Shown here piece after piece: positions 4,190 to 20,926 of a stretch of DNA of 43,953 nt. The notes under the pieces were generated by a model. The model had not been told where the DNA came from. It saw only the letters and a list, made by a program, of their open reading frames with translations, and ran no database searches. This stretch comes from Pseudomonadota bacterium. GTDB lineage: Bacteria > Pseudomonadota > Alphaproteobacteria > Rhodobacterales > Rhodobacteraceae. The stretch spans positions 1-43,953 of the forward strand of contig JBCCMR010000001.1 in assembly GCA_039026255.1 (NCBI GenBank), read 5' to 3'. The translations under genes were made by a program, and so were the position numbers. The stretch's first letter is position 1. Each line of letters opens with the position of its first letter.

Positions 4190-5061
4190 CGCGCCTTGAG
4201 TTTGGGGTTCAGCGCATCGTTGAGCCCGTCGCCCACCAGAGAGATGCACAGCACCGTCACAAAAATACAAAGCCCGGGGATCGTGACCGTGAAGCTGGCG
4301 TCGAGGATGTACTGGCGGTTCGACCCGATGATCTGACCCCAACTCACGACATTGGGATCGGTGAGCCCCAGAAAGCTAAGCCCCGCCTCAAACAGGATCG
4401 CCGACCCCACCATCAGCGCCGCCTGCACGATGATCGGCGGCAGCGCATTGGGCAGCATCACCCGCAGCATGATGCGCCCGGGCCGCGTGCCCGAGGCGCG
4501 GCTAGCCATCACAAAATCCAGCTCCCGGATGCGCATAAACTCGGCCCGGGTGATACGTGCCACGGCTGTCCAACTCACCACCCCGATAGCGAAGGTGATC
4601 ATTGGCAGCGACGCCCCGAAAAGCGCAACAATGACCATCGAAAAAAGGAGCGTCGGCAGGACCTGGAAGAATTCCGTGATCCGCATGAGAACCTCTTCCA
4701 CCCAGCCCAGGTAAAACCCGGCCAGGGCGCCTACGGTCACGCCGATAACGATGCTCACAAAGGCCGCCGACAGCCCGATCACGATGGAAACACGCGCGCC
4801 GCTTAGGATCTGGCTCATTAGATCGCGGCCCAAGTAGTCCGTGCCCAGAAGAAAACCATCTGCCCCCGGCGGCGAAAACGGCGCCCAAACCATCTCGAAG
4901 GGGTCGCCGCCGTAGAGGAACGGGCCGAAGATCGCCGCCAGCACGATCAGCGTCAGCACCACAAGGGCCGCCATAGCCGCATGGTTGCCGCGAAACCGCG
5001 CAAAGCTTTCAGCTAACGGGGACAGCGCGCGGCTTTGAGTGTCGAGTTGCAGATCGCTCAT
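4186..5061 (-). CDS. peptide/nickel ABC transporter permease (DppC/OppC-like)
   Basis: LGTDYLGRD, EAA-like loop (DFVMASRASG), LPNALPP, EAGLSFLGL, GDGLNDALNPK. Confidence 0.93.
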   Translation of the reverse strand: MSDLQLDTQSRALSPLAESFARFRGNHAAMAALVVLTLIVLAAIFGPFLYGGDPFEMVWAPFSPPGADGFLLGTDYLGRDLMSQILSGARVSIVIGLSAAFVSIVIGVTVGALAGFYLGWVEEVLMRITEFFQVLPTLLFSMVIVALFGASLPMITFAIGVVSWTAVARITRAEFMRIRELDFVMASRASGTRPGRIMLRVMLPNALPPIIVQAALMVGSAILFEAGLSFLGLTDPNVVSWGQIIGSNRQYILDASFTVTIPGLCIFVTVLCISLVGDGLNDALNPKLKAR

Positions 5062-5064
5062 CGC

Positions 5065-6042
5065 TTATCCTTTGCCGCCCACACGCGGGTCCACGGCGCG
5101 CAGGGCGGTGTCGGTCAGGATGTTTCCCACCACCACCACCAGCGCGCTGAAAAAGAGGATGCCCAGGATTGTCGGCGTGTCTCGGGCAATGATCGACTGA
5201 AAGGCCAGGGTGCCGAGGCCGGGCCAACTGAACACCGCCTCCACTAGAACGGCGCCCGAAATGACCGCCGAGAACTGAAGCCCTGCCAGGGTGATCACCG
5301 GCGAAAGCGCGTTTTTGAGCGCGTGTCGGTAGACCACAATATTTTCGGGCATGCCTTTGGCGTAAGCCGTCCGCACATAATCGGTGCGCAGTTGTTCGAG
5401 CATCGTCGCCCGGGTCAGCCGCGAATAGAGCGCCAGAAACACGCTGGCGAGCGTGATCATCGGCAACAGCAGGTGGCGCAGGATGTCGGCGGTTTCGACA
5501 AAGAAATTGCCGTCCACGGTCACGTCGCGCATGCCCGCCACGGGCAGGATCGGGATCTTGAGCGAAAACGCGATCAAAAGCAGGATGCCCGTCCAGAAAA
5601 CCGGCGCGGAATAGCCGAAGAGCGCGATGAAGGTGACCACATAGCTCGCCGCACCGTTCGGGCGCTTGGCCGAGATCACCCCGAGCACCACGCCGATCAA
5701 GAGCGCTAGGATCTGCGCCGAAAAGACCAGCAGAAGCGTCGCCGGAAGGCGTTGCAGGATCAGGTCAGTGACCGGGGTGTTGTAGAAGAATGAATAGCCC
5801 AGGTCGAATTGGAGCACGTTGCCGATGTAACGGCCAAGCTGCGCCAGAAACGGCTGATCGAGCCCGTAATCCTGGCGAATTTGTTCCAGCACCTCGGGGT
5901 CCGCGCCGCCCGAGGCCTGGGCAATGGTGTCGGCCACGTCGCCTGGGGCCAGGTGCATCATGGTGAAGTTCAACACCAGCACCGCCATCAAAAGCAGAGC
6001 CGCATAAACAAGTCGCACCGCGAGATTTTGCAGAAAGACCAA
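5065..6042 (-). CDS. peptide/nickel ABC transporter permease (DppB/OppB-like)
   Basis: APGD, YGLDQP, DLGYSF, DYVRTAYAKG, HALKNAL, VEAVFSWPGLG, DPRV. TTG start preceded by GGAAGGA. Confidence 0.93.
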   Translation of the reverse strand: MVFLQNLAVRLVYAALLLMAVLVLNFTMMHLAPGDVADTIAQASGGADPEVLEQIRQDYGLDQPFLAQLGRYIGNVLQFDLGYSFFYNTPVTDLILQRLPATLLLVFSAQILALLIGVVLGVISAKRPNGAASYVVTFIALFGYSAPVFWTGILLLIAFSLKIPILPVAGMRDVTVDGNFFVETADILRHLLLPMITLASVFLALYSRLTRATMLEQLRTDYVRTAYAKGMPENIVVYRHALKNALSPVITLAGLQFSAVISGAVLVEAVFSWPGLGTLAFQSIIARDTPTILGILFFSALVVVVGNILTDTALRAVDPRVGGKG

Positions 6043-6187
6043 AGTGGTGTTCCTTCCGGACGGGTCGCCGCGGGGAATGGCTCCGCCGGGGCGTCATATT
6101 CGGGCTGAGGCGCGCCACGGCGGGGTTCCGCCGCAGCGGTTTTCTCGTTTCCGGCGGGCCTTTTAGGGCCCGTTCCCCGCGGGAACC

Positions 6188-6230
6188 CCGACCGGGGCCG
6201 CAGCGGCGCGGCCGCGGCCCGGGGTGTCGG
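6188..6230 (-). terminator. GC-rich stem-loop just downstream of the substrate-binding protein gene (mRNA stabiliser or attenuator)
   Basis: Imperfect inverted repeat ccgac-cggggccgc...gcggcccg-gggtgtcgg at the SBP stop. No U-tract. Confidence 0.35.
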
Positions 6231-7811
6231 TCACTCTTTGAGGTAAACCAGGTCAAGCGGGCTAGATGTGGCCCAGATGCCCAGGGGCGCGTTGCCGACC
6301 TTTTCGTTGTAGACCGTGTGGTAGGGCAACGCGTTGGTGAAATAGATCGGCACCTCGTCGGCGATGATCTCCTGGAACTCTTTATAAAGCGCTTTGCGCT
6401 TTTCCGGATCCCCTTCTTTTGCGGCCATCGCCAAGAGGTCGTCCACGCGGGTATTGGCGTAGCCCTGGGTGTTCGACCACACGCCCTTGCCGATGTTCGA
6501 CGACAGGTAGGTGCGGTGCACGCCGATCACCGGGTCGCCCCAGTTAAAGACGGTGTCCCAGCTGAGGTCGAAGTCCATCTCGCCCATACGCTTGGCCCAT
6601 GTCGGGAAGTCGGCGCTGGCGCGTACCTCAACCTCGATCCCCACCTTCTTGAGCGCCGCCTTGACGTATTCAACCTGGGGCTTCACGCCCGGCCAGCCAA
6701 AATCGATGGTCAGATCGAAACGCTTGCCGTCTTCCATAGGAAAGCCCGCTTCATCAAGGAGCGCGTTCGCCTTGTCGAGATCGAGCGGGTAATCCGGCAC
6801 ATCGGCGTTGTAGAAGGGGCTATCCGGGTGAATGCCCGTTTTGGCGTCCGCGGCGGCGCCCAGCATCAGCGCCTTGTGGATAAAGTTCTTGTCGACCGCG
6901 TGGGCAATCGCCTGGCGCACGCGCTTATCCTGGAGAGGCCCGCGCTGGGTATTGATCGCGAGCCAATCAAGTGGCCCGATCGCGCCATAGCCTTCTGGCG
7001 TGACGGTCAGCTTTTCGTTCTTCTTGAGCCGGTTGATGATGCGCGGGATCGATTCGAATGCGCCCATTTGCACCTCGCCGTTTTCATAGGCAATGGCGCG
7101 GGCCGCTGGATCGGTGATAATGCGGAGCACAATTTCGTCCAGATAGGGCCGACCCTCTAGGAAGAAGCCGTCGTAGCGCTCCATGATGACGTATTCGCCG
7201 TTCTTGAACTCTTTGAGCTTGAACGGGCCCGAACCTACTACGTCGGTGGTGTTGCGCGGGTGTGTCTTAGGGTCCTGGCCGTCACCGTAGATGTGTTTTG
7301 GGATAATCGCCATCAACTGGCCAGACATAGCTAACAAAAGTCCCGGATGTGGCTGGCTCAGCCGCAGAATCGCGGTGTGCTCGTCAGGCGTTTCTACTGA
7401 TGCGACAGGGGCAAACATGGATTTAAACGGGTGATGTGCCTTGATGACGTCGACCGAAAAGGCCACGTCCTCGGACGTGATCGGCGCCCCGTCATGGAAG
7501 GTGGCGTTCTTGCGCAAGTTCAGCGTCACGCTAAGCCCGTCTTCGGCCACTTCCCAGCTTTCGGCCAGATAGGGCTGCGGCTCCCAGTTATCGTCATAGC
7601 GCAGCGGCGCGGCAAAAAGCTGGGCGCCGGGATAGCCCGTGACGATGCCTGACTGCACCGCCGGGTTCAGGTTGCGCACGTTGGTGCCCAGAACCGAAAT
7701 CAGCGTGCCGCCGCGGGTGGGCTCTTCGGCCCAACTTCCCGTGGCAACCGTCGCTGTGAGCGCAAGCCCTAGCGCGGCGGTTCGGGCCATGCCCGTGAAA
7801 AAACGTCTCAT
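6231..7811 (-). CDS. family 5 ABC substrate-binding protein (DppA-like)
   Basis: Signal peptide, RGGTL, PYLAESWEV, LRKNATFHDG.PITSEDVAFS, VGSGPFKL, DKRVRQAIAHAVD. Confidence 0.93.
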   Translation of the reverse strand: MRRFFTGMARTAALGLALTATVATGSWAEEPTRGGTLISVLGTNVRNLNPAVQSGIVTGYPGAQLFAAPLRYDDNWEPQPYLAESWEVAEDGLSVTLNLRKNATFHDGAPITSEDVAFSVDVIKAHHPFKSMFAPVASVETPDEHTAILRLSQPHPGLLLAMSGQLMAIIPKHIYGDGQDPKTHPRNTTDVVGSGPFKLKEFKNGEYVIMERYDGFFLEGRPYLDEIVLRIITDPAARAIAYENGEVQMGAFESIPRIINRLKKNEKLTVTPEGYGAIGPLDWLAINTQRGPLQDKRVRQAIAHAVDKNFIHKALMLGAAADAKTGIHPDSPFYNADVPDYPLDLDKANALLDEAGFPMEDGKRFDLTIDFGWPGVKPQVEYVKAALKKVGIEVEVRASADFPTWAKRMGEMDFDLSWDTVFNWGDPVIGVHRTYLSSNIGKGVWSNTQGYANTRVDDLLAMAAKEGDPEKRKALYKEFQEIIADEVPIYFTNALPYHTVYNEKVGNAPLGIWATSSPLDLVYLKE

Positions 7812-7904: not shown

Positions 7905-8549
7905 CTATGGGCCATCGCGAACTACTAATCCGGTGAAGATGCGGTCCAAAAAGCCGATGATGCGCGTCTCAAAGGCAATTCCGGGATCAGGCAGCGGCCC
8001 GCCCTCCATGGTGCTGACCACGTCGCAACAGCCATGAAGCAGCGACCAAATCATCAGCGCGGTATCATCGGGGTCGTCCACGGCCAAGTGCCCGGCATCA
8101 ATGCCCTGGGCCAGTTCCCGGGATAAAAGCGCAATGGTTGCGGCGCCCGCGGTTTCGTCGGCGTCGTTCCTGGGGCGCAACATCACGCGCACCCACGACG
8201 CATGATCACGCGCGAAGTGACAGTAGGCCAAGCATCCACCCGTGAGCCGAGCGCGCCAGTTATCCCCGGCCCGATCCAGCGCCGCCACAATTGCCGGCCC
8301 CATGCGGGCGAACCCTTCGTCCGCGACCGCACGCAGGAGCGCGTCTTTATCCTTAAAGTGCATGTAGGGAGCGTTGTGGCTGACACCTGCGGCCCAGGCC
8401 AGGGCACGCAGCGAAAGCGCCTCGGGCGGGGTATCGCGCAAAATATCTAAGGCCCGCGCCACCAGATCGGCCCGTAGGTCGCCGTGGTGGTAGGGCCTTG
8501 TGCTGCGCGGCGGGTCACTGGTTCCAGCGCATATATCGACATCGTCCAT
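7905..8549 (-). CDS. TetR/AcrR family transcriptional regulator
   Basis: YHHGDLR, LSLRALAWAAGVSHNAPYMHFKDKDALL helix-turn-helix, C-terminal IWSLLHG. Start codon uncertain. Confidence 0.9.
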   Translation of the reverse strand: MDDVDICAGTSDPPRSTRPYHHGDLRADLVARALDILRDTPPEALSLRALAWAAGVSHNAPYMHFKDKDALLRAVADEGFARMGPAIVAALDRAGDNWRARLTGGCLAYCHFARDHASWVRVMLRPRNDADETAGAATIALLSRELAQGIDAGHLAVDDPDDTALMIWSLLHGCCDVVSTMEGGPLPDPGIAFETRIIGFLDRIFTGLVVRDGP

Positions 8550-8568
8550 ATTACCGCCCATCCGTTAT

Positions 8569-8999: not shown

Positions 9000-9416
9000 A
9001 TGCGCCCAACTCGCTTGATCCCCGTTGCGATCACACTCGCCGCGCTAGCCCTATCCAGCGGGCCGCTGAGCGCCAAAACCCCGCTGCGCGACAACACGGC
9101 AATCAACGACCAGCTCCTGGTGGTCGGGCTCGCCAACGAGATCCGCAAGACCTGCGGCTCGATCTCTGGGCGACTGGTCAAGGGGGTGTCGACCCTGCGC
9201 GCGATCCACCGCCAGGCCCTGTCCGAGGGCTATTCCAAAGACGAAATCGAAGCTTATGTAGATAATCGCGACGAAAAGAATCGCATGAAAGCGCGCGGGC
9301 GTGCCTGGCTTGCGGCGCGGGGGGCAAGCCCGGATAACCCTGACACCATGTGCCGCGTGGGCCGCGAAGAAATCGCCAAGGCCAGCGCCATCGGTTCACT
9401 TTTGTACGAAAACTGA
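9000..9416 (+). CDS. DUF5333-like secreted protein (nuo-cluster accessory ORF)
   Basis: Signal peptide, KTPLRD..I...L...LANEIRKTC.SI.GR, GYSKDEIEAYV, C.VGREEI...SAIGSLL. Confidence 0.8.
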   Translation: MRPTRLIPVAITLAALALSSGPLSAKTPLRDNTAINDQLLVVGLANEIRKTCGSISGRLVKGVSTLRAIHRQALSEGYSKDEIEAYVDNRDEKNRMKARGRAWLAARGASPDNPDTMCRVGREEIAKASAIGSLLYEN

Positions 9417-9486
9417 CCTGCTGCGCCCGGCACCCACGAGCCCTTGTCGCTTGAGCCGCGCACCCATCCGGTTTAGGCCAAATACG

Positions 9487-9957
9487 ATGGGACGCGCCGC
9501 CGGATACGCATTTGCGGGCGCGCAGGCGGCCGCCTGCGCCATTTTCATTTCAGCCTGCACCCCTGAGGACCCCGCCCGGGACAGGGCCAGCGACCCCACG
9601 ACGTACCCAGTTTTACAAACGGACGCCGATGATGCCCCAGCGGTCGCACCTCCGCGCTACGGCACGATCCGAACCCGTCTGTTGGAAGGCGATCTTGTTG
9701 CCATCGACGTCACCGTGGAAAACGCGCTGTCAGAGGCGGTGGTGCTGCGGTTCGGGGACTGCGCCGCTGCTCGCTATGCGCTGATCCGTGGGGTGCGCTT
9801 TGCCAGTCGGGTTACGAACCAGGTTACCCGCTCGGGGGACACCTGGACTGGGGCCGGGGTCTACACGCTCTGGCGCGCGGACCCGGGATCGACGTCCGTG
9901 ATCGCTGCCCGCGCCACGGTCGCCGGGTGCGAGGCCGACGGCATCCCCACCGTCTGA
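9487..9957 (+). CDS. lipoprotein resembling a Rhodobacteraceae nuo-cluster accessory ORF
   Basis: Lipobox ISAC. LLEGDLV, CAAARYALIRG..FA, VYT and terminal C...GIPTV match my recollection of this family. Confidence 0.7.
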   Translation: MGRAAGYAFAGAQAAACAIFISACTPEDPARDRASDPTTYPVLQTDADDAPAVAPPRYGTIRTRLLEGDLVAIDVTVENALSEAVVLRFGDCAAARYALIRGVRFASRVTNQVTRSGDTWTGAGVYTLWRADPGSTSVIAARATVAGCEADGIPTV

Positions 9958-10105: not shown

Positions 10106-10522
10106 ATGAGCGAACTCGCCAAATTCTTCGACGGCATGATGCGTCAGAGCCAGGACATGGCCGAAAAGATGGGAATGGACACCCGTTTGATGGACCCCTG
10201 GCGCGAGATGATGGTCAAAAACGTCGAACTGGCCGAAGATATGGTTCCAGCGCAGATGAAAGAAGCACTGGAGCATATGGTGGGCCAGGGGCTTGACCCT
10301 AAAGCGCGGGCGCTCACCACCGTGGCAGGCCTGACCGCGCGGGGTGCCGAAGACACCGCGATCCTTACCACAGCCATCAACGCCGCCATCGCAGCGGGGG
10401 CGTCGAACCGCGAAATCTCCGAAACCATATTGCAGATGGCCGGGATCGGCGCCGTCACTGGCGTGCCCAAAGCAATGACCATCGCCATGGGGATCATGGC
10501 GTCGAAAGGAGGCGCGCGATGA
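10106..10522 (+). CDS. carboxymuconolactone decarboxylase/AhpD-like protein (nuo-cluster accessory)
   Basis: RBS AAGGA. Met-rich N-terminus, GLDPKARAL.TVAGLT..GA, A..AGAS..EI.ETI.QM. Confidence 0.8.
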   Translation: MSELAKFFDGMMRQSQDMAEKMGMDTRLMDPWREMMVKNVELAEDMVPAQMKEALEHMVGQGLDPKARALTTVAGLTARGAEDTAILTTAINAAIAAGASNREISETILQMAGIGAVTGVPKAMTIAMGIMASKGGAR

Positions 10523-10899: not shown

Positions 10900-10935
10900 G
10901 GCTAGGCGTGGGCTAGCGGGACCGGAGTGTTGGTC

Positions 10936-11460
10936 ATGGGGTGGGCAATCACCTTCTATCTTGCCGGGGCGGGGCTTTTGGGCGGGACGGGACTTGCCAT
11001 ATGTTCTGACAGCACCGGCTGGCGGGCCGCAGGGCTGTTAGCGGCGGGGCTTGCCCTTGGCGTCTTGGGTCTTGTCGCCGGGGCGGGGGCCGTGGCACTG
11101 GTCTTAGGGACCGTCCACGGTGGAATCGCGGCTGCGGGCGTGGTTTGGGCCGAAGCGAGGCTTGACGAAGGCGCGCCAAAACCACCTGGCGCGGGACTGG
11201 CCCTGGGCCTTACGGTCGGCTTGGGATTTATGGTTGTGCTTAGCTTCGCCCTGGGTGAGAGGAGCGCATCCGTGGCGTCATTAGCGGGACATAGCACGAC
11301 GCAATCGGTGTTTTTACTGTCTTTAGGGGCGCTTTTCCTAGTCATCTGCGCCATCGCGGCCTTTGCGCTTTGGCGGCCAGAGGACGGACCAAAGGCATCG
11401 CCGGCGGCCCCGCTTTGGGGGCCTGTACGCAAACGCGACAAACGACGGCCCGGGGGATGA
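10936..11460 (+). CDS. nuoJ: highly divergent NADH-quinone oxidoreductase subunit J-like membrane protein
   Basis: Collinear with NuoJ by eye: FYL...GG...S...L.L..GA..VA..L..VHG....LD and C-terminal FLL.L..L....IAA..L.R. Sits between the CMD gene and nuoK. RBS GGAG. Confidence 0.6.
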   Translation: MGWAITFYLAGAGLLGGTGLAICSDSTGWRAAGLLAAGLALGVLGLVAGAGAVALVLGTVHGGIAAAGVVWAEARLDEGAPKPPGAGLALGLTVGLGFMVVLSFALGERSASVASLAGHSTTQSVFLLSLGALFLVICAIAAFALWRPEDGPKASPAAPLWGPVRKRDKRRPGG

Positions 11461-11996
11461 TCGCGCGCGCCTCGCAGGCCGTCGGACCGCGGACTTCCCC
11501 AAGGTTATTCCGAGGGGCGATGACAGCCGCCGTTTTTTGTGCCACCCTATTGGTCGCAGCAGTCCACGCCGAAGGCAACCAGCCCCAAAACCTATCAGAC
11601 TGCAACCGGCGCACTCACATTAGCCACGGGGGCCAAGACGGCACCCGCGACTATGGCAGCGGCATGGTCGGCTGGGTTGCCTGGTGGGCCCAGGAAGGAA
11701 CTTTCAAAGAGGTCTGGCTTGCCAACTGCCAAAGCGGCCAAGCACTCAGCGTGCGGACCGCAGAAGAACGTATTTCAAACCGCTATATTCCGGATCGCAC
11801 CCTGCGCGCGCGCGCAGCCCTCGCTACCTGGGCCGACACCGGGCCGGGATTTTTCACCGTCGACTGGATGGCCCAGCAGCTGGGCACCTTTGGCAAAGAC
11901 CTGACCGTGCGCGCCATGCGTGAGGAGGTATGCGCCTGCGCCGTCGCCTACCCCGACTTGCGCGGCACTAAGACCCCTTTTGCGGGGCTCGAATGA
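11457..11996 (+). CDS. hypothetical secreted Cys-containing protein between nuoJ and nuoK
   Basis: ATGA overlap with nuoJ stop (alternative start 11520). Signal-like segment, WW.QEG, C-terminal CACAVAYPDLRG.K.PF. Confidence 0.7.
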   Translation: MIARASQAVGPRTSPRLFRGAMTAAVFCATLLVAAVHAEGNQPQNLSDCNRRTHISHGGQDGTRDYGSGMVGWVAWWAQEGTFKEVWLANCQSGQALSVRTAEERISNRYIPDRTLRARAALATWADTGPGFFTVDWMAQQLGTFGKDLTVRAMREEVCACAVAYPDLRGTKTPFAGLE

Positions 11997-12124: not shown

Positions 12125-12409
12125 ATGATCGGGCCTGACCATGTGCTGACCCTGGCGGCCGCCCTCTTTGCGTTGGGGGCATTCGGGCTTTTCCGCGGCA
12201 CGGGGGCGCTGATGCCCGCTGTTATATCAATCCATGTGATGGCGCTAGCCGCAGCACTTGGCGCCTTCGCCATAGGGGGGCTCTTTCCCGGCGCGGCGAT
12301 CCTGGCGAGCTCGCTGGGGCTGGCGGGGCTTGCCCTTGCCGTCGAGGTCTGCTTTGTGCGCGGGCGCACGGTGGACACCGCACCCGGCGACACGAAGGCG
12401 AAAGGGTAA
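12125..12409 (+). CDS. nuoK: divergent NADH-quinone oxidoreductase subunit K-like protein
   Basis: MIG.DH.LT.AA.LF..G.FGLF, SIHVM (canonical SIELM), GLA..VCF.R, terminal KG, directly upstream of nuoL. Confidence 0.8.
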   Translation: MIGPDHVLTLAAALFALGAFGLFRGTGALMPAVISIHVMALAAALGAFAIGGLFPGAAILASSLGLAGLALAVEVCFVRGRTVDTAPGDTKAKG

Positions 12410-12417
12410 GGCACCCG

Positions 12418-14367
12418 ATGGAAATCACACTTCTGCTGTTGCCGCTTCTGGGCGCTATCCTCTGCGGATGGGGGTGGCGGCTTTTCGGCGACACCGCCGC
12501 CACCTGGATCGCCACCCTCAGCAGCGTCGGCGCCGCCGCGCTTGCCTTTTGGACGGTGCTGACCTTCGACGGACCCCGGGTTGTGGCCCTAGGTCGCTGG
12601 ATCGAGTCCGGATCGCTCAGCACCGACTGGTCTATCTTGATCGACGGACTGTCCGCAGCAATGCTTTTGGTCACAATGACGCTCGTCGCGCTGCTGCAAG
12701 TATACGCCATCGGTTTTATGGCCCGCGACGAAGACTTCCCCGACGGCGAGGTATATCGCCCGCGCTTTTTCGCTTTTTTGTCGCTCTTTGCCTTCGCCCT
12801 AGGCGTGCTTTTCACTGCCGAAAACCTTCTCCAGCTGATTTTCGGTTGGCAGGCGGTGGCCTTTGTGGGCTTTCTTTTGACCGGCTTTTACTTTCGCAAA
12901 CCATCTGCAAACAGCGGAGCGATGCGCGCTTTTGTGACAGGACGGGTCGGCGACTCAGCGCTGTTAGTGGCCCTGGCGGCGCTATTCGCGGTGGCAGATA
13001 GCGCAGTCTTTTCGGACATCTTAGACACTACCACAATTGCCGCACTTCGGGCTGAGATTTGGACCGTGGCGGGCCGCGACATCACCGCGGCAAGCGCCGT
13101 TGGCGGGCTTTTAGCCCTGGCTGCGGCGTTCAAAGCGGCGCTTATATTCGCCCACATATCAGCACCTAGGTCCATGGATGCACCGGCCCCGGGCGCGGCG
13201 CTCATCGTTGTCCTCGGCGGGCTCCTCGTGGCAGTGTTCCTGGTTCTGCGGCTAGCACCGATCTTTAATGCCGCCCCCCTGGCCGGACTGCTGATGGTTG
13301 GGGCGGGCGGGCTCACGACCGTTTTCGGAGCGGGCGCGGCCCTGGCCCAGCGCGAACTAAAGCGTGTGTTGGCCTTCGCTAGCGTGTCTCAGGGCGGCGT
13401 GGTCTTCGTGGCGCTTGGCCTGGGCGCCTATGGCGCAGCATTAACACAGGCCCTGGCGGCGGCGGTGACGCTGACGCTTCTTTACCTGGGGGCCGGATCG
13501 GTAATTCGCGCCATGCAACGAGACCGCGATATGCGCGGCTATGGCGGCCTACGCAGTCGTATGCCTGTCACCTACGCGGCCATGGTTATCGGCGCGCTGG
13601 GGCTTGCGGGTGTGGGTATCCCGGCCACGGGGCTTGGGTTTGGGGGATTTACGTCTCTGGGCGCCATTGCCAGCGCCGCCCAGGACGCAGCCCGGGTGCC
13701 TGTGCTGGGCAACGGACAGACCCTAGCGCAGGCGGCGTTCTGGGCGCTTTGCATAAGCGGGCTTTTGACCGGACTATTTGTAGGGCGGCTGATATTGCTG
13801 ACGTTCCACGGGCGCCCCCGCGGCGAACGCAAGACCCACGACCAGGCCCAAGAGGCCGTCGCGACGGTCACGGTGCCTATGGGCATCCTGATGGCCGCAA
13901 CGGTGGCGGTCCCAGTCGCCGGAGCCTTTGCGGCTGGCCTGATGGGCCTTTCCACCGGGGGACAGGGCCCCGCGCAGGGTCTTAGCGTAATGGCAACGCT
14001 GGCCCCGCTCGGGGGCCTGGCGCTCGCATGGCCGATCTTTGCGCGCGGGTCCGACTGGCCTCAGGGGGCGCAGGGGTTGGGCAACTTCTTGCGCCAGGGT
14101 TGGGGGCTTGACGCCCTCGTGGAGCGGGTGACCATTACCCCGCTTCTTTGGCTGGGAGAGCGGCTTTCACGCCGCCTTGATGGCCAGGTCATCGAAGCTG
14201 GAACCACAACGCTGGCGCGTGTTTTTGCCAGGGGTGCCTTGCCCTGGTTTGCCCGCCCGACCCAGGACCCCGATACCCCCGCGGGCGGGGTCGCTCACTA
14301 CGCCATGGTCAGCCTGTCGGCCGCCGCAATTCTGGTGATCTTTTTCGCGGTGCGGAGCGTCGGCTGA
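12418..14367 (+). CDS. nuoL: divergent NADH-quinone oxidoreductase subunit L-like protein
   Basis: RWIESGSLSTDW, YRPRFFAFLSLF, GFYFRKPSAN, RVGD, KRV.A..SQ, LGAGSVI, DMR.YGGLR, LTFHG.PRG, C-terminal lateral helix region. Confidence 0.9.
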   Translation: MEITLLLLPLLGAILCGWGWRLFGDTAATWIATLSSVGAAALAFWTVLTFDGPRVVALGRWIESGSLSTDWSILIDGLSAAMLLVTMTLVALLQVYAIGFMARDEDFPDGEVYRPRFFAFLSLFAFALGVLFTAENLLQLIFGWQAVAFVGFLLTGFYFRKPSANSGAMRAFVTGRVGDSALLVALAALFAVADSAVFSDILDTTTIAALRAEIWTVAGRDITAASAVGGLLALAAAFKAALIFAHISAPRSMDAPAPGAALIVVLGGLLVAVFLVLRLAPIFNAAPLAGLLMVGAGGLTTVFGAGAALAQRELKRVLAFASVSQGGVVFVALGLGAYGAALTQALAAAVTLTLLYLGAGSVIRAMQRDRDMRGYGGLRSRMPVTYAAMVIGALGLAGVGIPATGLGFGGFTSLGAIASAAQDAARVPVLGNGQTLAQAAFWALCISGLLTGLFVGRLILLTFHGRPRGERKTHDQAQEAVATVTVPMGILMAATVAVPVAGAFAAGLMGLSTGGQGPAQGLSVMATLAPLGGLALAWPIFARGSDWPQGAQGLGNFLRQGWGLDALVERVTITPLLWLGERLSRRLDGQVIEAGTTTLARVFARGALPWFARPTQDPDTPAGGVAHYAMVSLSAAAILVIFFAVRSVG

Positions 14368-15959
14368 TGGATAACCTTTTGTCCATCGTGACTTTCTTAC
14401 CGCTTCTTGCCGCCCTAATCCTGGCGATATTTTTGCGCGGCGACGATGGCGCCGCCCAGCAAAACGCCAAGATTTTGGCGCTTGTGGCCACCGGCGCCAC
14501 TTTTGTGATCTCGGTGGCGATTGTGACGCAGTTTGAGCCAGCTACCACGGATTTCCAACTGGTGGAGCGGTTCGCATGGGTGAGCGATCTAAGCTACGCC
14601 ATGGGGGTCGACGGGGTAAGCCTTGTCTTTGTTATGCTAACCACAGCGCTAATGCCCTTTGTGGTGGGTGCCGCTTGGACAGTAAACACCCGCGTGAAGG
14701 AGTTTATGATTTTGCTCCTGGCAATTGAAACGCTTCTTTTAGCGGCCTTCCTGGCGCTGGATTTGATGCTCTTTTTTGTGGCCGCGGAGGCGGTGCTGAT
14801 CCCCGTGTTCCTGCTGATCGCCATTTGGGGCGGGGCGGAGCGTCTGACAGCAGCTTTCAAATACGCGCTGCTTGCCTTGATCAGCCTGGCTGCGCTTTTG
14901 ACTGCTGTGACACTCCTTTGGACCGCGGCAGGCACAACTGACATGGGCGCGCTCCTGTCAGCCGCCGCCGAAAACGGTCCATTGGCGCTTCTTGGGGACC
15001 AGTATACCGCAGTGATGGCCCTGTTACTGGGCGCATTTGCGGTCAAACTTGCGCTTTGGCCTGCGCATGTCTGGCTGCCCCAGGCCATGGCCCAGGCGCC
15101 CACCGGGGTCACGGTGCTTTTGTCGGCGGTGACAGTGAAACTGGGCGCCTACGGGCTTCTTAGGCTTTGGGTGCCCCTTGGCGCGCCGGGAATGGAACTT
15201 TGGGGGCCCTACCTTTTTGCCCTGGCCCTGGCGGCAATCCTCTTTGGCGGGCTTATGGCACTTGTCCAAGAAGACCTGATGAGGCTTTTGGCCTACGCAG
15301 GCGTGGCGCAGATGGGCTTTGTCGCGCTGGGCGTGCTAGGCGCCACGCGACAGGCGATTGACGGCGCACTTTTTGCGGTTGTGGCCCACGCTATTGCTGC
15401 CGCGGGCCTTTTGATCCTGGTGGGTGCCCTACGCGACCGGGTGGCCAGCACCCAGATCGAAAACTTTGGCGGCTTGGTGGTGCGCATGCCAGTGTTTGCC
15501 GTCGTCTTCATGATTTTTGTCCTTGGCGCGATCGGTTTGCCAGGCACGGCCGGCTTTGTGGGCGTGGTTCTTGTGGTCACCGGCGTCTTTCCCGCCGGGG
15601 CATGGGTGGCGATCCTCGGTGCGCTTGGCCTTGCAGTCGCAGCGGCCTACGGGATCAGGCTTTATCGGCGCGTCGTGGCCGGCGACCTCATTCGCGAAGC
15701 GCTTAAAGCAATCCGAGACCTTGACCGGCGCGAACTGACCCTTGTGGTGCCGCTGATTGCGCTGACGCTGGCGTTGGGTATCGCACCTAGCCTGATGCTG
15801 GATCTTGTGGGCCCCACGACCGAGGCCCTGGCGGCTACCTTTGAAACTGCAGCCCAGGCCGAAACTGATACGGCCACCAACACTTCCGCGCCGATCCACA
15901 TCGACACTGCCGATGCCGCGACCGCGACCGCCGCGCCCACTGCGGGCGCCGGGGATTAA
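14367..15959 (+). CDS. nuoM: divergent NADH-quinone oxidoreductase subunit M-like protein
   Basis: MDNLLSIVTFLP, FQLVE, MGVDGVS, E..LIP, IWGG..R, FAVK...WP.H.WLP, KLGAYG.LR, LVQED, GLPGT.GFVG. Confidence 0.93.
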   Translation: MDNLLSIVTFLPLLAALILAIFLRGDDGAAQQNAKILALVATGATFVISVAIVTQFEPATTDFQLVERFAWVSDLSYAMGVDGVSLVFVMLTTALMPFVVGAAWTVNTRVKEFMILLLAIETLLLAAFLALDLMLFFVAAEAVLIPVFLLIAIWGGAERLTAAFKYALLALISLAALLTAVTLLWTAAGTTDMGALLSAAAENGPLALLGDQYTAVMALLLGAFAVKLALWPAHVWLPQAMAQAPTGVTVLLSAVTVKLGAYGLLRLWVPLGAPGMELWGPYLFALALAAILFGGLMALVQEDLMRLLAYAGVAQMGFVALGVLGATRQAIDGALFAVVAHAIAAAGLLILVGALRDRVASTQIENFGGLVVRMPVFAVVFMIFVLGAIGLPGTAGFVGVVLVVTGVFPAGAWVAILGALGLAVAAAYGIRLYRRVVAGDLIREALKAIRDLDRRELTLVVPLIALTLALGIAPSLMLDLVGPTTEALAATFETAAQAETDTATNTSAPIHIDTADAATATAAPTAGAGD

Positions 15960-15971
15960 CGGGGCCTACCG

Positions 15972-17420
15972 GTGCTGGCGCTAGACCTGGCGACCGCCCT
16001 ACCCGAAACGGTGCTGGCGGTGTTCCTTTTGGCGGCCTTTGCCTTCGCCGTCCTGACCCGCGGCGACACGCTCACAGGCCCGATTATTGGCGCCACAACC
16101 GGCGTCATGGGGGCGCTTGGTCTCTGGATCGCGTTCCTGCCTGCCGCCAACCGAAGCGCCTTTGGCGGTATGCTTGTCGATGACGCCTTCGCCCGCTACA
16201 CCAAAGTGCTGATCCTGTGGACCGCGGGGGTCGTTTTGCCCATGGCCCAAGCGCACCTGCGCCGCACCGGGCAGCACCGCTACCCTTTCCCGATCTTGGC
16301 GGGATTTGCCGTTTTGGCGATGTTGTTGACCGTCTCAGCAGGGGACCTCGTGGCGCTTTTTCTGGCGGTTGCATCCCTGGCGGCCGCGCTGACCGGGCTG
16401 GCCACCCTCGGGCGGCGCACGCCGCGGGCAACCGCGTTGACGCTGCGTTTTACCCTGGGACTGATGGCCGGTCTGGGGCTGATCGCCTTTGGCATTGCAA
16501 TCTTGGTGGCGGCCACCGGCGCCACCGGCTACTCCGCCCTGCGCGCCACTCTAGCCGTGACCGATGGCGGACTGGCGGCGACGGTGGGGCTAGTGCTTTT
16601 GATGGCGGGGCTGGCGGTTTTTGCCGGGGCGGCGCCCTTCCACATCTGGTGTGGGGACATGCAGGCGGGGGCGCCCGGGTCATTGGCGATTGTCCTGGCC
16701 GCCCTCCCAAGGGTCACAGCCTTGGCAGCCTTGGCTAGGCTTGGCGTCGAAACCCAGGGCCCAGCCCAGGGGGACGGCCCACTCATTCTTGTATTGATCG
16801 GTGGTGGCTCGCTGCTTTGGGCGGCGTTTGCCGCCGCCGGGGAGCCGCACCTGCGCCGGCTGATCGCCCACGCGGCAGTCTTTGGGACGGGCCTGGCGGT
16901 CCTTGGCATGGCTGCGGCGCTGGCGACCGGGACCGCCGCGGGGATGCAGGCGGCCCTTCTGGTGCTAACCATGCAAGCCATAACGCTGACTGCGGCCCTT
17001 GCGCTTTTGACTGGGCTCGAACAGGACGGGCGTCCAGTGACCGCCGTGGTCCAGTTGCGCGGCTTTGGCCAAGCCGACCCGCTGCGCGCAGCAGCGCTTA
17101 GCGTTTTGATCCTAAATCTTGCGGGCTTGCCACCGCTCGCGGGGGTAGTGGGGGTAGGGTTCACACTCGGCGCGCTTAGTGCCGCTTGGCCCTGGGCGGC
17201 GGCCGTTGGGGCTGCAGTGCTCGTGCCTTTTGCAGCAGGTATGCTGCGGGTCATCTTTGCCCTCTATACCCCTACCGACGCCGACCCGCCCGATAGCACG
17301 ATGCCCGCCCTATCCTATGCGGCGCTCTTGGGGGGCGCGGCGGTGATGCTTTTGGGCCTTGTCACTACTTGGGGCACGGTCGAGCGCGCCGCGCGCGCGG
17401 CCCAAGCACTTTGGCAATGA
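15972..17420 (+). CDS. nuoN: highly divergent NADH-quinone oxidoreductase subunit N-like protein
   Basis: LPE..LA, AFGGML.DDAFAR..K, YP.PIL, SAGDL..L, PFH.W..D...GAP, LAGLPPLAG. Immediately upstream of birA. Confidence 0.85.
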   Translation: MLALDLATALPETVLAVFLLAAFAFAVLTRGDTLTGPIIGATTGVMGALGLWIAFLPAANRSAFGGMLVDDAFARYTKVLILWTAGVVLPMAQAHLRRTGQHRYPFPILAGFAVLAMLLTVSAGDLVALFLAVASLAAALTGLATLGRRTPRATALTLRFTLGLMAGLGLIAFGIAILVAATGATGYSALRATLAVTDGGLAATVGLVLLMAGLAVFAGAAPFHIWCGDMQAGAPGSLAIVLAALPRVTALAALARLGVETQGPAQGDGPLILVLIGGGSLLWAAFAAAGEPHLRRLIAHAAVFGTGLAVLGMAAALATGTAAGMQAALLVLTMQAITLTAALALLTGLEQDGRPVTAVVQLRGFGQADPLRAAALSVLILNLAGLPPLAGVVGVGFTLGALSAAWPWAAAVGAAVLVPFAAGMLRVIFALYTPTDADPPDSTMPALSYAALLGGAAVMLLGLVTTWGTVERAARAAQALWQ

Positions 17421-18187
17421 CGGTATCGCCGCTTTTCCCGGCGCCGCCCCCATGGCCAAGCGATGTGGACCGCGTGACGCTTCCCTCCGTCGACAGCACC
17501 ATGGCCGAAGTGCGCCGCCGGGCTCCGGTCGCGGGCGTTGACACCTGGGTACACGCCCTGGACCAAAGCGCCGGCACTGGACGGCGCGGGCGCGCCTGGG
17601 CGCAACCGCCGGGGAACTTTTCAGCCTCACTTCTCCTACGCCCGGAGGAGCCACCTTCCCGCCTGGCCCTGCGCAGCTTTGTGGCGTCCTTGGCCTTGCG
17701 GGACGCGTTAGTCGCTGTCACCGGCGAAGAGGACTGGTTTCAGATGAAATGGCCCAACGATGTCCTAATGCACGGCGGCAAAGTCGCCGGTATCTTATTG
17801 GAAACGCTAGCTGAACCCTCAGGTCCCGCGCTGATTGTGGGGATCGGCGTAAACCTGGCAGCAGCCCCTCCGGTGGCAGAACTGGAACCCGGCGCCATCC
17901 GACCCCGGTCGCTAGCTGGGAGCGGCATCAAAGTCGCCCCGGGCGATTTTCTCGACTATCTGGCGCCTGCGTTTTACCGCTGGGATCGGCTTTTGCGCGA
18001 CCAAGGCTTTGATCCCTTGCGCCGCGCTTGGCTAGACCGGGCCGCACGCATAGGTCAGCCGGTGGTGGCGCGCCTGCCCAATGAAGAAATCGCGGGCGTT
18101 TTTCGCACAGTGGACGCCACAGGCGCCCTTGTACTAGACACAGATGCGGGCCCGCGCACCATTGCCGCGGGCGACGTCTTCTTTTGA
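17417..18187 (+). CDS. birA: biotin--[acetyl-CoA-carboxylase] ligase
   Basis: VDSTM, Q.AG.GRRGR.W, KWPNDV, KVAGILLE, VGIGVN, AGDVFF. ATGA overlap with nuoN. Confidence 0.95.
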   Translation: MTVSPLFPAPPPWPSDVDRVTLPSVDSTMAEVRRRAPVAGVDTWVHALDQSAGTGRRGRAWAQPPGNFSASLLLRPEEPPSRLALRSFVASLALRDALVAVTGEEDWFQMKWPNDVLMHGGKVAGILLETLAEPSGPALIVGIGVNLAAAPPVAELEPGAIRPRSLAGSGIKVAPGDFLDYLAPAFYRWDRLLRDQGFDPLRRAWLDRAARIGQPVVARLPNEEIAGVFRTVDATGALVLDTDAGPRTIAAGDVFF

Positions 18188-18205: not shown

Positions 18206-18979
18206 ATGCTCCTGGCCATCGACGTAGGCAACACAAATTCAGTCTTTGCCATCCATGACGGGGAGAGATTTGTCGCCGAATGGCGCTGCGCAACCGAAGT
18301 GCAGCGCACCGCCGACGAATATTACGCCTGGCTGCGCAACCTAATGTCCTACCAAAACGTGCACGTCCCTATCGAGCGTATCGTGGTCAGTTCAGTGGTG
18401 CCGCGCGTGGTCTTTAACCTGCGGGTTCTGGCCGATAAATACTTCGGCACGCGACCTGTCGTGGTGGGCAAACCCGACTGCAACCTTGGGCCCGAGCCCC
18501 GGGTGGATGCCGGCACGATCGTCGGCGCCGACCGCCTCGTGAACGCCGTGGGCGCCTATGACCGCTATGGGCCCGACCTGATTGTGGTGGATTTTGGCAC
18601 GGCCACCACCTTTGACGTGGTGGACCACGACGGGGCCTATGTGGGCGGGGTGATTGCACCGGGTGTAAACTTAAGCATTGAGGCGCTGCATCGTGCCGCA
18701 GCCGCCCTGCCCCACATCGACGTGACAATGCCCGAAAAAGTCATTGGCACCAACACACTAGTGTGCATGCAAGCCGGGGTTTTTTGGGGTTACGTCGGTA
18801 TGGTCGAAGGGGTCTGCGCCCAGATCAAAGCCGAGTTTGGACGCCCCATGCAGGTGATCGGCACCGGCGGATTGTCGGGGCTATTCCAGCGCGGAACAGG
18901 GGCTTTTGACCACCTGGATGGCGACCTGACAATGCACGGGCTCTGGCTTATTGACCGGTTGAACCGCGACGCAGACTAA
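18206..18979 (+). CDS. coaX: type III pantothenate kinase
   Basis: LLAIDVGNTN, SSVVP, GADR, VVDFGTATTFD, GGVIAPG, IGTGG. Confidence 0.96.
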   Translation: MLLAIDVGNTNSVFAIHDGERFVAEWRCATEVQRTADEYYAWLRNLMSYQNVHVPIERIVVSSVVPRVVFNLRVLADKYFGTRPVVVGKPDCNLGPEPRVDAGTIVGADRLVNAVGAYDRYGPDLIVVDFGTATTFDVVDHDGAYVGGVIAPGVNLSIEALHRAAAALPHIDVTMPEKVIGTNTLVCMQAGVFWGYVGMVEGVCAQIKAEFGRPMQVIGTGGLSGLFQRGTGAFDHLDGDLTMHGLWLIDRLNRDAD

Positions 18980-19018
18980 GCTTCCCAGTCAGCGGTGCCG
19001 CGCGAAGCAGACTTTCCG

Positions 19019-19048
19019 ATTTTGAGTGTTTGGACAAAGAGGAAGAGG
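19019..19048 (-). repeat. dispersed intergenic motif, copy 1
   Basis: Minus strand reads cctcttcctctttgtccaaacactcaaaat. Confidence 0.55.
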
Positions 19049-19178
19049 CGAACCCAGCGCCGATCTATGGAACCCAGGATAATCGCACCGGGTTGGTGAC
19101 CGTTCGGCCGCGCATGGTCCAGAAGGACCCGGACGGCGGCCCGGGGGACCCAGATCGATCTATAACGCGGCGCCAGGG

Positions 19179-19207
19179 CTTGACCCCCGGCGCGCACTGG
19201 CCATAAC
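19179..19207 (+). promoter_or_regulatory. putative sigma70 promoter for rnj
   Basis: CTTGAC-N17-CATAAC, about 57 nt upstream of the ATG. Confidence 0.5.
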
Positions 19208-19264
19208 CCTCAGACCCCGAGCCAAAAGTGAAGGGGGCAGACCACGACCAAGGACACTTTCCCG

Positions 19265-20926
19265 ATGACCGAACGCTTGATCTTTGCCGCCCTGGGCGGG
19301 GCTGGCGAAATCGGCATGAATATGTACCTCTACGGCTGGGGTGCACCGGATGCTGAAGAGTTCATACTGGTGGACATGGGCGTGACGTTTCCGTCGATGG
19401 ACAGCACTCCGGGGGTGGACCTGATCATGCCCGACGTGGCCTGGCTGGCGAAGCGGGCAGATCGCTTGCGCGGCGTGTTTATCACCCATGCCCATGAGGA
19501 CCATATTGGCGCGCTTGGTCACCTTTACGCCCGGCTGGGCGGGCCACGGGTCTTGACCAGGGCGTTTACGGGCGCGGTGGCGCGGGCCAAGCTGGGAGAG
19601 CACGGCGTGGATGTGGATCAGGTCGAGGTGCTGGGCCCAATGCCGCACATGACCGATGTGGGGCCCTTTCAGGTCGGCTTTTTGCCTGTGCCCCACTCTA
19701 TCCCGGAAGCGTCTGGCCTTGTAATCGACACGCCGGCCGGACGTCTGGTGCACACCGGCGACTTTAAGCTCGACCCCGATCCCGTAGTAGGAGAACCCTT
19801 TGACGCCAGCGCCTGGGCCGCTGTCGCAAAACCGGGCGTGCATGCGCTTATCTGTGATTCGACCAATGTCTTTTCCCCGGCGCCGGGCCGGTCCGAGGCG
19901 GGGCTTGCCGAGGACATAGGCGCCCTAATCGAAGGCGCAAACGGGTTGGTGGTCGCCACGACGTTTGCATCTAACGTTGCGCGTCTAAAGACCCTAGCCC
20001 AGGCGGCCCAAGCTGCCGGGCGCAGCGTTTGTGTCCTGGGGCGCGCCATGCAGCGGATGCTGGGCTATGCCCGTGGGGCCGGACTCATCGACGACTTCCC
20101 CCCGGTCGTGGACCTAGAAGACGCCCATGAGATCCCCCGGGACCACCTGATGTTGATCGTCACCGGCAGCCAAGGCGAGCGGCGCGCGGCCTCGGCGCAG
20201 TTGGCCAACGGAAAATACCTAGGCTTTCGCCTGCAAGAGGGCGATCTTTTCCTCTTTTCGTCGAAAACCATCCCCGGCAATGAAGTAGGCGTAAGCCGCG
20301 TCATCAACCAGATGTCGGAGATGGGCGTGCGGGTGATCGATGACAGCGACGGGCGATATCATGTGTCGGGGCATGCAAACCGTCCGGACCTAGAACGGGC
20401 GCACGGGATTTTCAAGCCGCGGATCGTTGTGCCAATGCACGGCGAACACCGGCACCTGCGAGCCCATGCGGACCTGGCGCGGGCCGCGGGAATGGAGAGC
20501 CTTGTCGCTCCGAACGGCACGGTGGTGGACCTAACTCAAAACGCACCCAAGGTGGTGGATGCCATAGAGGCCGGGCGCACATATCTTGACGGGTCCGTCC
20601 TGATCGGAGCCTTTGACGGGGTGGTGCTTGACCGAGTGCGGATGGCCACGCGCGGCACGGTGGTGGTGGCGCTGATGGTGGAAGATGGCGCGCTTGTGGG
20701 CGACCCTTGGGCCGAAGCCCTGGGCATGCCCGAGGACGCAAACGCCCACGCGGCGCTTCAGGACACGATAGAGGCCGCGATTGCCGGTGAGCTTGGCGCC
20801 ATGCTAGCCAAGGGCGCCGACGATGAAGCGATTGAGCGTGCTACGGTGCGCGCAGTGCATCGGGTGACTAAGGACCAGGTCGGCAAAAAGCCTGTTGTGC
20901 GGGTATTAATCAATCACCTGACCTAA
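19265..20926 (+). CDS. rnj: ribonuclease J
   Basis: LGGAGEIGMN, ITHAHEDHIG, HSIPE, HTGDFK, FASNVAR, TGSQGE, IPGNE, HVSGHA, PMHGE. Confidence 0.96.
   Translation: MTERLIFAALGGAGEIGMNMYLYGWGAPDAEEFILVDMGVTFPSMDSTPGVDLIMPDVAWLAKRADRLRGVFITHAHEDHIGALGHLYARLGGPRVLTRAFTGAVARAKLGEHGVDVDQVEVLGPMPHMTDVGPFQVGFLPVPHSIPEASGLVIDTPAGRLVHTGDFKLDPDPVVGEPFDASAWAAVAKPGVHALICDSTNVFSPAPGRSEAGLAEDIGALIEGANGLVVATTFASNVARLKTLAQAAQAAGRSVCVLGRAMQRMLGYARGAGLIDDFPPVVDLEDAHEIPRDHLMLIVTGSQGERRAASAQLANGKYLGFRLQEGDLFLFSSKTIPGNEVGVSRVINQMSEMGVRVIDDSDGRYHVSGHANRPDLERAHGIFKPRIVVPMHGEHRHLRAHADLARAAGMESLVAPNGTVVDLTQNAPKVVDAIEAGRTYLDGSVLIGAFDGVVLDRVRMATRGTVVVALMVEDGALVGDPWAEALGMPEDANAHAALQDTIEAAIAGELGAMLAKGADDEAIERATVRAVHRVTKDQVGKKPVVRVLINHLT

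Follow-up and report, generated by a model that had tools for sequence, protein, structure and literature searches.

The whole stretch of DNA that was analysed, here called the window, comprises 43,953 nucleotides and represents contig C1 of G000, a fragmented genome assembly of 2.93 Mb. The nearest sequences to its proteins are of the Rhodobacteraceae type, and most of the stretch is present in two marine metagenome runs from one study, one of which may be its source. Its central feature is a run of four uninterrupted open reading frames (ORFs) at 12125-17420, which encode antiporter-like folds orthologous to the complex I membrane subunits NuoK, NuoL, NuoM and NuoN, lie in the canonical order and are followed by birA, coaX and rnj. 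The window holds what is left of the cell's native operon for complex I, from which the genes for the quinone site and for electron transfer have been deleted.

The operon remnant and its proton-pumping axis

The intact operon of the related genome G022 runs nuoA-E, a DUF5337 gene, nuoF, a DUF5333 gene, nuoG, a small gene, nuoH, nuoI, a carboxymuconolactone-decarboxylase (CMD)-family gene, nuoJ-N and birA. In G000, three of these accessory genes adjoin each other on the forward strand, namely the DUF5333 gene (9000..9416; Pfam PF17267; 57% identity to the G022 copy), which marks the deleted operon and lies between nuoF and nuoG in intact relatives, the small hypothetical gene that lies there between nuoG and nuoH (9301..9957; 54% to the G022 copy over 108 amino acids (aa), its true start being probably further in), and the CMD gene that lies there between nuoI and nuoJ (10106..10522; PF02627; 49% to the G022 copy). 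Since nuoG is missing before the small gene and nuoH-nuoI after it, so that the flanking accessory genes are now adjacent, nuoG, nuoH and nuoI were cut out in place. At the nuoJ position there is a hydrophobic ORF of 177 aa (10927..11460, +), possibly a decayed NuoJ, with a structural Atlas lead to PF00499 (TM 0.54) and no match to a NuoJ hidden Markov model (HMM) or by hhalign. Downstream, birA (17417..18187, +; TIGR00121) and coaX with rnj (18206..20926, +) form the native flank of the alphaproteobacterial nuo operon, in the same order as in intact relatives.

The missing genes were not found elsewhere in G000: a tblastn search with the G022 nuo proteins returned no further NuoA-K orthologue, its matches being confined to NuoE C-terminal-like domains and one NuoG-like sequence at 24%, and family searches for nuoD, nuoH and NDUFS4 were empty. 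Thus, the set that defines a complex I (NuoB, C, D, H and I, usually with E, F and G) is not encoded, and three relatives that are 95-98% complete agree. Genes of the upstream flank, a DUF5337 gene with a NuoE-C-terminal-like gene (G000:C58:5710-6190) and an enoyl-CoA hydratase gene (C200:664-3068), were seen on other contigs without nuoA-F, and the locus has therefore also been rearranged. A Na+-NQR is encoded in G000, with nqrA, apbE and a partial nqrB (its start) on contig C270; Mrp-type operons lie on contigs C13 and C193.

The initial annotation of this stretch, made by eye, had proposed that the charged proton-pumping axis was systematically lost in NuoK, NuoL and NuoN while the fold was kept, and had read the three as a natural pump-dead or neofunctionalised module. 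The subunits were now aligned with MAFFT to those of E. coli K-12 and of intact relatives, with genus genomes and up to four from other genera as controls and with residue roles taken from the relevant part of PMC10212512. In NuoK (12125..12409, +) the replacement E36>H37 and the loss of the E72 motif (E72>L66) were confirmed, at sites invariant in 44/44 intact controls. The NuoL changes (12418..14367, +) were likewise borne out, i.e., E144>Q145, H254>V264, H334>Q344, H338>A348, K342>L352, K399>L414 and D400>G415, all at sites invariant in 45/45 controls, as was the retention of K229, R175 and D178. In NuoN (15972..17420, +) the four reported changes (E133>A134, K217>F217, K247>R247 and K395>V395) were joined by a fifth, H305>G305, each site being invariant in 52/52 controls. 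NuoM (14367..15959, +), which had escaped notice, is hit too: E407>V400, H248>M241 and H322>Q315, each invariant in 48/48 controls, while Glu144, Lys234, Lys265 and His348 are kept.

A comparison with the Paracoccus complex, which had been suggested as a check, was made by pairwise alignment to 8qby and gave the same replacements; neither register shifts nor compensating charges were found. A maintained fold fits the AlphaFold2 models (pLDDT 79.9 for NuoM and 84.8 for NuoL; TM 0.84 for NuoM against 8qby_M), which lean on alignments of intact relatives. The axis of a working complex I (Glu in transmembrane helix (TM) 5, Lys in TM7, Lys/His in TM8 and Lys/Glu in TM12 of NuoL, M and N, with Glu36 and Glu72 of NuoK) is thus broken, and NuoK, NuoL, NuoM and NuoN of the window have probably lost proton pumping. 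The notion of a pump-dead or neofunctionalised module stands as far as it went, but it had missed the other complex I deletions, the Na+-NQR and the loss of NuoM Glu407; furthermore, the comparison described below places the conserved core in NuoM and NuoL, not in NuoK or NuoN.

Recurrence and selection

Of 44 further genomes of the genus, each with a completeness of at least 85%, three lack nuoD (G018, G053 and G062). All three encode a full NqrB, for which only G023, with an intact operon, passed the cut-off among 55 others. They keep the accessory genes and, directly before birA, only nuoL and nuoM, at 29-45% identity to G022 (intact relatives, 75-95%); nuoH and NDUFS4 were not found in them, and cytochrome b, CtaD and Mrp-type subunits are kept, complex III being present in all four genus remnant genomes. 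In marker trees (FastTree, with coaX and rnj as lineage markers, and a further tree of rpoB+rplJ+rplL), G000 groups with G018 and G053. G062 is placed elsewhere, as the sister of G052 (SH-aLRT 100 on rpoB+rplJ+rplL), whose operon is intact and which lacks NqrB, and both flanks and the third-position GC content (GC3) of the G062 locus look native. For these reasons the nuoL+nuoM-only state likely arose twice within the genus. In G018, the CMD-family gene is split into two frames (L040:14008-14398) next to open nuoL and nuoM genes, which makes it an internal control for decay, and BirA in two remnants without nuoN (L048:9691-10452 and L040:9229-10161) has 40-42% identity to G022 as compared with 49-59% in most relatives.

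The search was extended to the family, where nuoD was found in 395/400 genomes sampled one per genus. The five negatives, which had normal-scoring L/M/N-type matches but lacked NqrB, were regarded as gaps in the assemblies. A search of genome contigs for loci related to the window's NuoL gave no close relative.

At the level of the class, 400 alphaproteobacterial genomes at least 92% complete were sampled, of which 365 have nuoH (16 of the 35 negatives follow from absence among the matches listed). Thirteen of the 35 have a NuoM-family match, and 11 of these were examined, G822 (normal score) and G649 being left out. Three were dropped: G745, whose match is hydrogenase-4-like, G034, on account of a contig end, and G812, which is uninformative since its nuoM and rnj are both fragmented. 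The remaining eight, from four other families (G527, G582, G702, G796, G508, G753, G842 and G482), carry a strongly diverged nuoM (21-32% to G022) and an upstream L-sized membrane gene; in seven of them nuoN is present as well and the genes immediately precede birA-(coaX)-rnj. Some proteins at the L position no longer match Pfam, which makes residue mapping in them unreliable. In five of these distant genomes (93-100% complete), no cytochrome b was found, two have NqrB and one has RnfD only. In seven further genomes (G477, G625, G734, G824, G515, G521 and G554) the best NuoH-family match is very weak (E 1e-38 to 1e-62); such matches might represent hydrogenase subunits, fragments or genomes that are at an earlier point in this kind of decay. 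A small protein is encoded just upstream of the remnant in G527, G753 and G508 (L299:12889-13218, L301:6745-7065 and L303:11406-11774); the one scanned had no credible Pfam match, and it may be a candidate partner or a former accessory gene of the operon.

What the 12 remnants have in common lies in NuoM. Glu144 and a Lys or Arg at 234 (Arg in nine) are kept in 12/12, as is Asn33 of helix 2, which is present in 11/15 intact class controls. Conversely, Glu407 and His248 are lost in 12/12, and K265 is kept in 4/12. Of the 116 columns that do not vary among the controls, all 12 remnants retain only four, E144 included. A context-free NuoM profile search gave 20 of 143 cluster representatives with a residue other than Glu at 407, including the G062 protein itself, one with an aberrant end and two with Asp. 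A search of genome contigs for loci related to one of these degenerate proteins (P0253) gave distant NuoM sequences but no close relative. The 80 loci from metagenomes that accompany alignment A1 each proved to be an ordinary operon (residue 407: Glu in 69, Asp in one, not covered in 10).

Several lines of evidence show that purifying selection continues to act on nuoL and nuoM. When intact genes were subjected to random point mutation, without indels, down to the observed identities, 0/200 runs per gene stayed free of stops (mean 11 in nuoL, 6 in nuoM and 8 in nuoN), and hydrophobicity fell, whereas the real proteins keep it. Single-nucleotide polymorphisms (SNPs) between strains, among the differences listed, were 15 synonymous and 3 nonsynonymous in nuoM (ratio of nonsynonymous to synonymous polymorphism, pN/pS, 0.08; p 1e-6), 9 and 5 in nuoL (0.21; p 0.004) and 2 and 5 in nuoN (about 1, from 7 SNPs). 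This ranking matches the order in which the genes survive, nuoM being the most constrained and nuoN deleted in the three sister remnants. NuoM and NuoL therefore have neither the stops and frameshifts nor the neutral evolution of pseudogenes. The conservation of NuoM is moreover inverted: relative to the genus consensus, the identity of aa 1-50 is 0.48-0.88 in the four genus remnants as compared with 0.40-0.48 in nine distant intact homologues, while in the core (aa 131-290) it is 0.28-0.47 in the remnants versus 0.64-0.78 in the distant intact homologues (site-shuffle, 0/20000). The eight distant remnants show this N-terminal bias as well. NuoL decays faster than NuoM, and in it a periplasmic β-hairpin region (aa 55-80) also stands out as preferentially kept.

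Interpretation and alternatives

The remnant is real, convergent and selected. The pattern suggests, tentatively and at a little less than even chances, that Alphaproteobacteria use NuoM (ND4), along with NuoL, for a second purpose independent of respiration, and that it is the portion of complex I which lineages, with or without complex III, have time and again been unable to lose; helix 1-loop-helix 2, Asn33 and the Glu144-Arg/Lys234 pair would then form the binding surface for an undiscovered membrane partner or substrate. As to how, there is perhaps an even chance that a leak-proof NuoL-NuoM unit was retained as a docking scaffold for a putative membrane partner. The excision of nuoG, nuoH and nuoI from between the surviving accessory genes, with nuoD, nuoH and NDUFS4 not found elsewhere in the genome, was the first step. 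The NQR, which occurs in all four genus remnant genomes, then likely took over NADH oxidation, leaving the pump dispensable. Orphan NuoL and NuoM would be expected from published mutants to leak protons, and NuoM Glu407, NuoL Lys399 and the wire histidines may have been lost for that reason while the closed Glu144-Lys/Arg234 pair of NuoM stayed, such leak-sealing changes being tolerated or favoured once the redox arm had gone. Finally, the helix 1-loop-helix 2 surface of NuoM and the periplasmic hairpins, on which selection is seen, would have been kept for binding; NuoK and NuoN would be dispensable and on their way out, and the proposed partner would not be complex III in every lineage.

The residues concerned have been addressed in liposome assays of the Nqo subunits, where they presumably correspond, by role, to E407, K265, K399 and E144. 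In proteoliposomes, isolated Nqo13 and Nqo12 are described as conducting protons; removing the terminal Glu or the middle Lys of Nqo13, or the terminal Lys of Nqo12, blocks conduction, and removing the ion-pair Glu raises it (data from part of PMC11496545). The NuoM pattern, i.e., an ion pair that is kept and often fixed by Arg and a terminal Glu that is gone, is what might be expected of a sealed subunit. NuoL has lost the ion-pair Glu, yet the entire wire downstream of it has gone as well.

Various explanations without a new function, or with a different one, have to be considered. That the assembly is at fault, or that these genes are a second copy accompanying an intact operon missed in an incomplete and fragmented genome, is scarcely credible, in that the deletions sit within one contig, the nuoH-I gap is bridged by one contig of run X1 (possibly the source sample), a near-identical NuoM (P0122) is encoded in another assembly and the three more complete relatives are in the same state. 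It is also highly improbable that the genes are a slowly decaying relic with no function of its own, held open and hydrophobic by the polar effect on birA-coaX-rnj, or the toxicity, that stops or misfolded fragments would entail. The essential genes directly downstream, the neutral look of the NuoN SNPs, the very long branches and the many genomes lacking both nuoH and a NuoM match would fit such a relic; yet nuoA-K and nuoN, the latter directly before birA, were cleanly deleted in the same lineages while nuoL and nuoM stayed each time, and polarity leaves unexplained the pN/pS of nuoM, the N-terminal bias and the retention of E144 and the Asn in 12/12 remnants.

A residual or repurposed channel or transporter, in which NuoM Glu144-Lys/Arg234 and the helix-2 Asn (with NuoN Lys395 where kept) would form a Na+ or small-solute site without a proton wire, is unlikely. 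E144 is among the few columns kept throughout, NuoN position 395 is K or R in 8/9 remnants that keep NuoN, and the NQR makes the remnant cells Na+-cycling. On the other side, an Arg at 234 cannot readily release a proton, the four genus genomes have separate Mrp-type subunits, and NuoL, the Na+ candidate, is the faster-decaying subunit. From the literature, NuoL E144Q, K229A and H254A are described as still supporting growth of a B. subtilis mrpA deletion in salt (part of PMC4938563); against this, changes equivalent to the loss of E407 and, in most remnants, of K265 block conduction (part of PMC11496545). A scaffold for complex III itself would be attractive within the genus, all the more so as Paracoccus complex I is described as sitting in supercomplexes (part of PMC11522691); it is quite improbable, since complex III would have to be present wherever the remnant occurs, and 0/5 of the distant genomes tested encode cytochrome b (4/4 in the genus have complex III) and yet show the same NuoM pattern. 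PIMT was rejected as the anchored partner, as it binds the hydrophilic domain (PMC11522691), and vitamin import, hinted at by the adjacency of birA and coaX, found no support, the gene order being ancestral.

A number of observations weigh against a retained NuoL-NuoM scaffold or limit its reach. In addition to the 77% completeness of G000, 22/35 class genomes without nuoH gave no match to NuoM at E 1e-15, so the role would not be universal, with the proviso that true remnants scored as low as 1e-21 and 1e-18 (two) and some may be missed at this threshold. Two of the five distant genomes tested have neither NqrB nor RnfD, and in the family all 56 of 400 genomes with NqrB keep nuoD; NQR is thus insufficient, permitting but not forcing the loss of complex I. 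E144 is absent in several of the context-free degenerate NuoM proteins (P0250, P0253, P0282, P0286 and P0378). The strain SNPs, of which 40 of 45 were listed, come from low-depth contigs of two runs in one study, and the N-terminal bias of NuoM is weak for the four genus remnants when measured against a class-wide consensus. In the gene tree of NuoM, the four remnants of the genus come together (support 97, on long branches), a G062+G052 grouping not being rejected (p-AU 0.197), and the seven distant genomes with rnj could form one clade (p-AU 0.665, not rejected), so the 12 genomes are not independent and at least three origins are supported.

Known relatives and minor features of the locus

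By membership, the remnant falls outside both complex I and Mrp, and it resembles an orphan distal ND4+ND5 module of complex I. It descends directly from the complex I membrane arm (Paracoccus Nqo11-14, E. coli NuoK-N), with the native locus before birA-coaX-rnj and the predicted fold kept, but it lacks nuoA-I and the axis charges of K, L, M and N, and the sister remnants have only L and M. With the Mrp/Pha antiporters (MrpA, MrpD) it shares the state of a stand-alone antiporter-like pair without a redox module; its best NCBIfam matches, however, are NuoL/M/N, its TM12 and TM8 charges are lost, and no mrpB, C, E, F or G lies beside it, the Mrp operons of G000 being elsewhere. The mitochondrial distal (P_D) module consists of the same two subunits and is described as a separately assembling unit (part of bioRxiv 10.1101/2025.06.10.658862), but in mitochondria this unit occurs transiently, on the way to a working enzyme, whereas the remnant is an end state with the chemistry removed. 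The engineered isolated Nqo12 and Nqo13 (part of PMC11496545) are also orphan subunits, and the natural changes match the blocking ones by role; the remnant differs in being natural, convergent and under selection. No carbonic-anhydrase-like DabA gene was found among the 14 neighbouring ORFs scanned, which sets the locus apart from the DAB pumps. The DabA/DabB and NdhD3/F3 inorganic-carbon pumps likewise use a NuoL-like subunit outside complex I and keep a proton path.

A genome survey reports 2,171 species with an incomplete complex I, and in the part consulted there is no description of such charge-stripped remnants (PMC12361115); in the full-text literature, i.e., outside subscription papers, the paper on PDB 9g83-9gae and supplements, no paper on charge-stripped NuoL/NuoM remnants was found. 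The remnants would amount to a natural dissection of complex I, in which the redox arm and proton wire were removed at least three times and NuoM and NuoL were left each time, separating pumping residues from residues needed for something else. This points to a further role of ND4/ND5 homologues, here in the Alphaproteobacteria, the mitochondrial lineage, and the remnants may serve as natural sealed variants for models of ion-pair and terminal-residue gating. It also calls for caution with annotations, as a genome listed with nuoL/M/N need not have a complex I that pumps protons.

Some minor features of the locus remain to be mentioned. A promoter scan was uninformative (1 site versus 1.6 expected), and no RNA data set was among those listed as containing the locus. 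Between the nuoJ position and nuoK lies a soluble-looking hypothetical gene without a Pfam match (11370-11996, +), a 55% homologue of which occupies the corresponding position before nuoL in the remnant genome G053 (L048:5752-6297). Upstream of the DUF5333 gene, in the place expected for nuoF and the first part of the operon, the window carries a peptide-type ABC transporter (4186-7811, -) and a TetR regulator (7905-8561, -).

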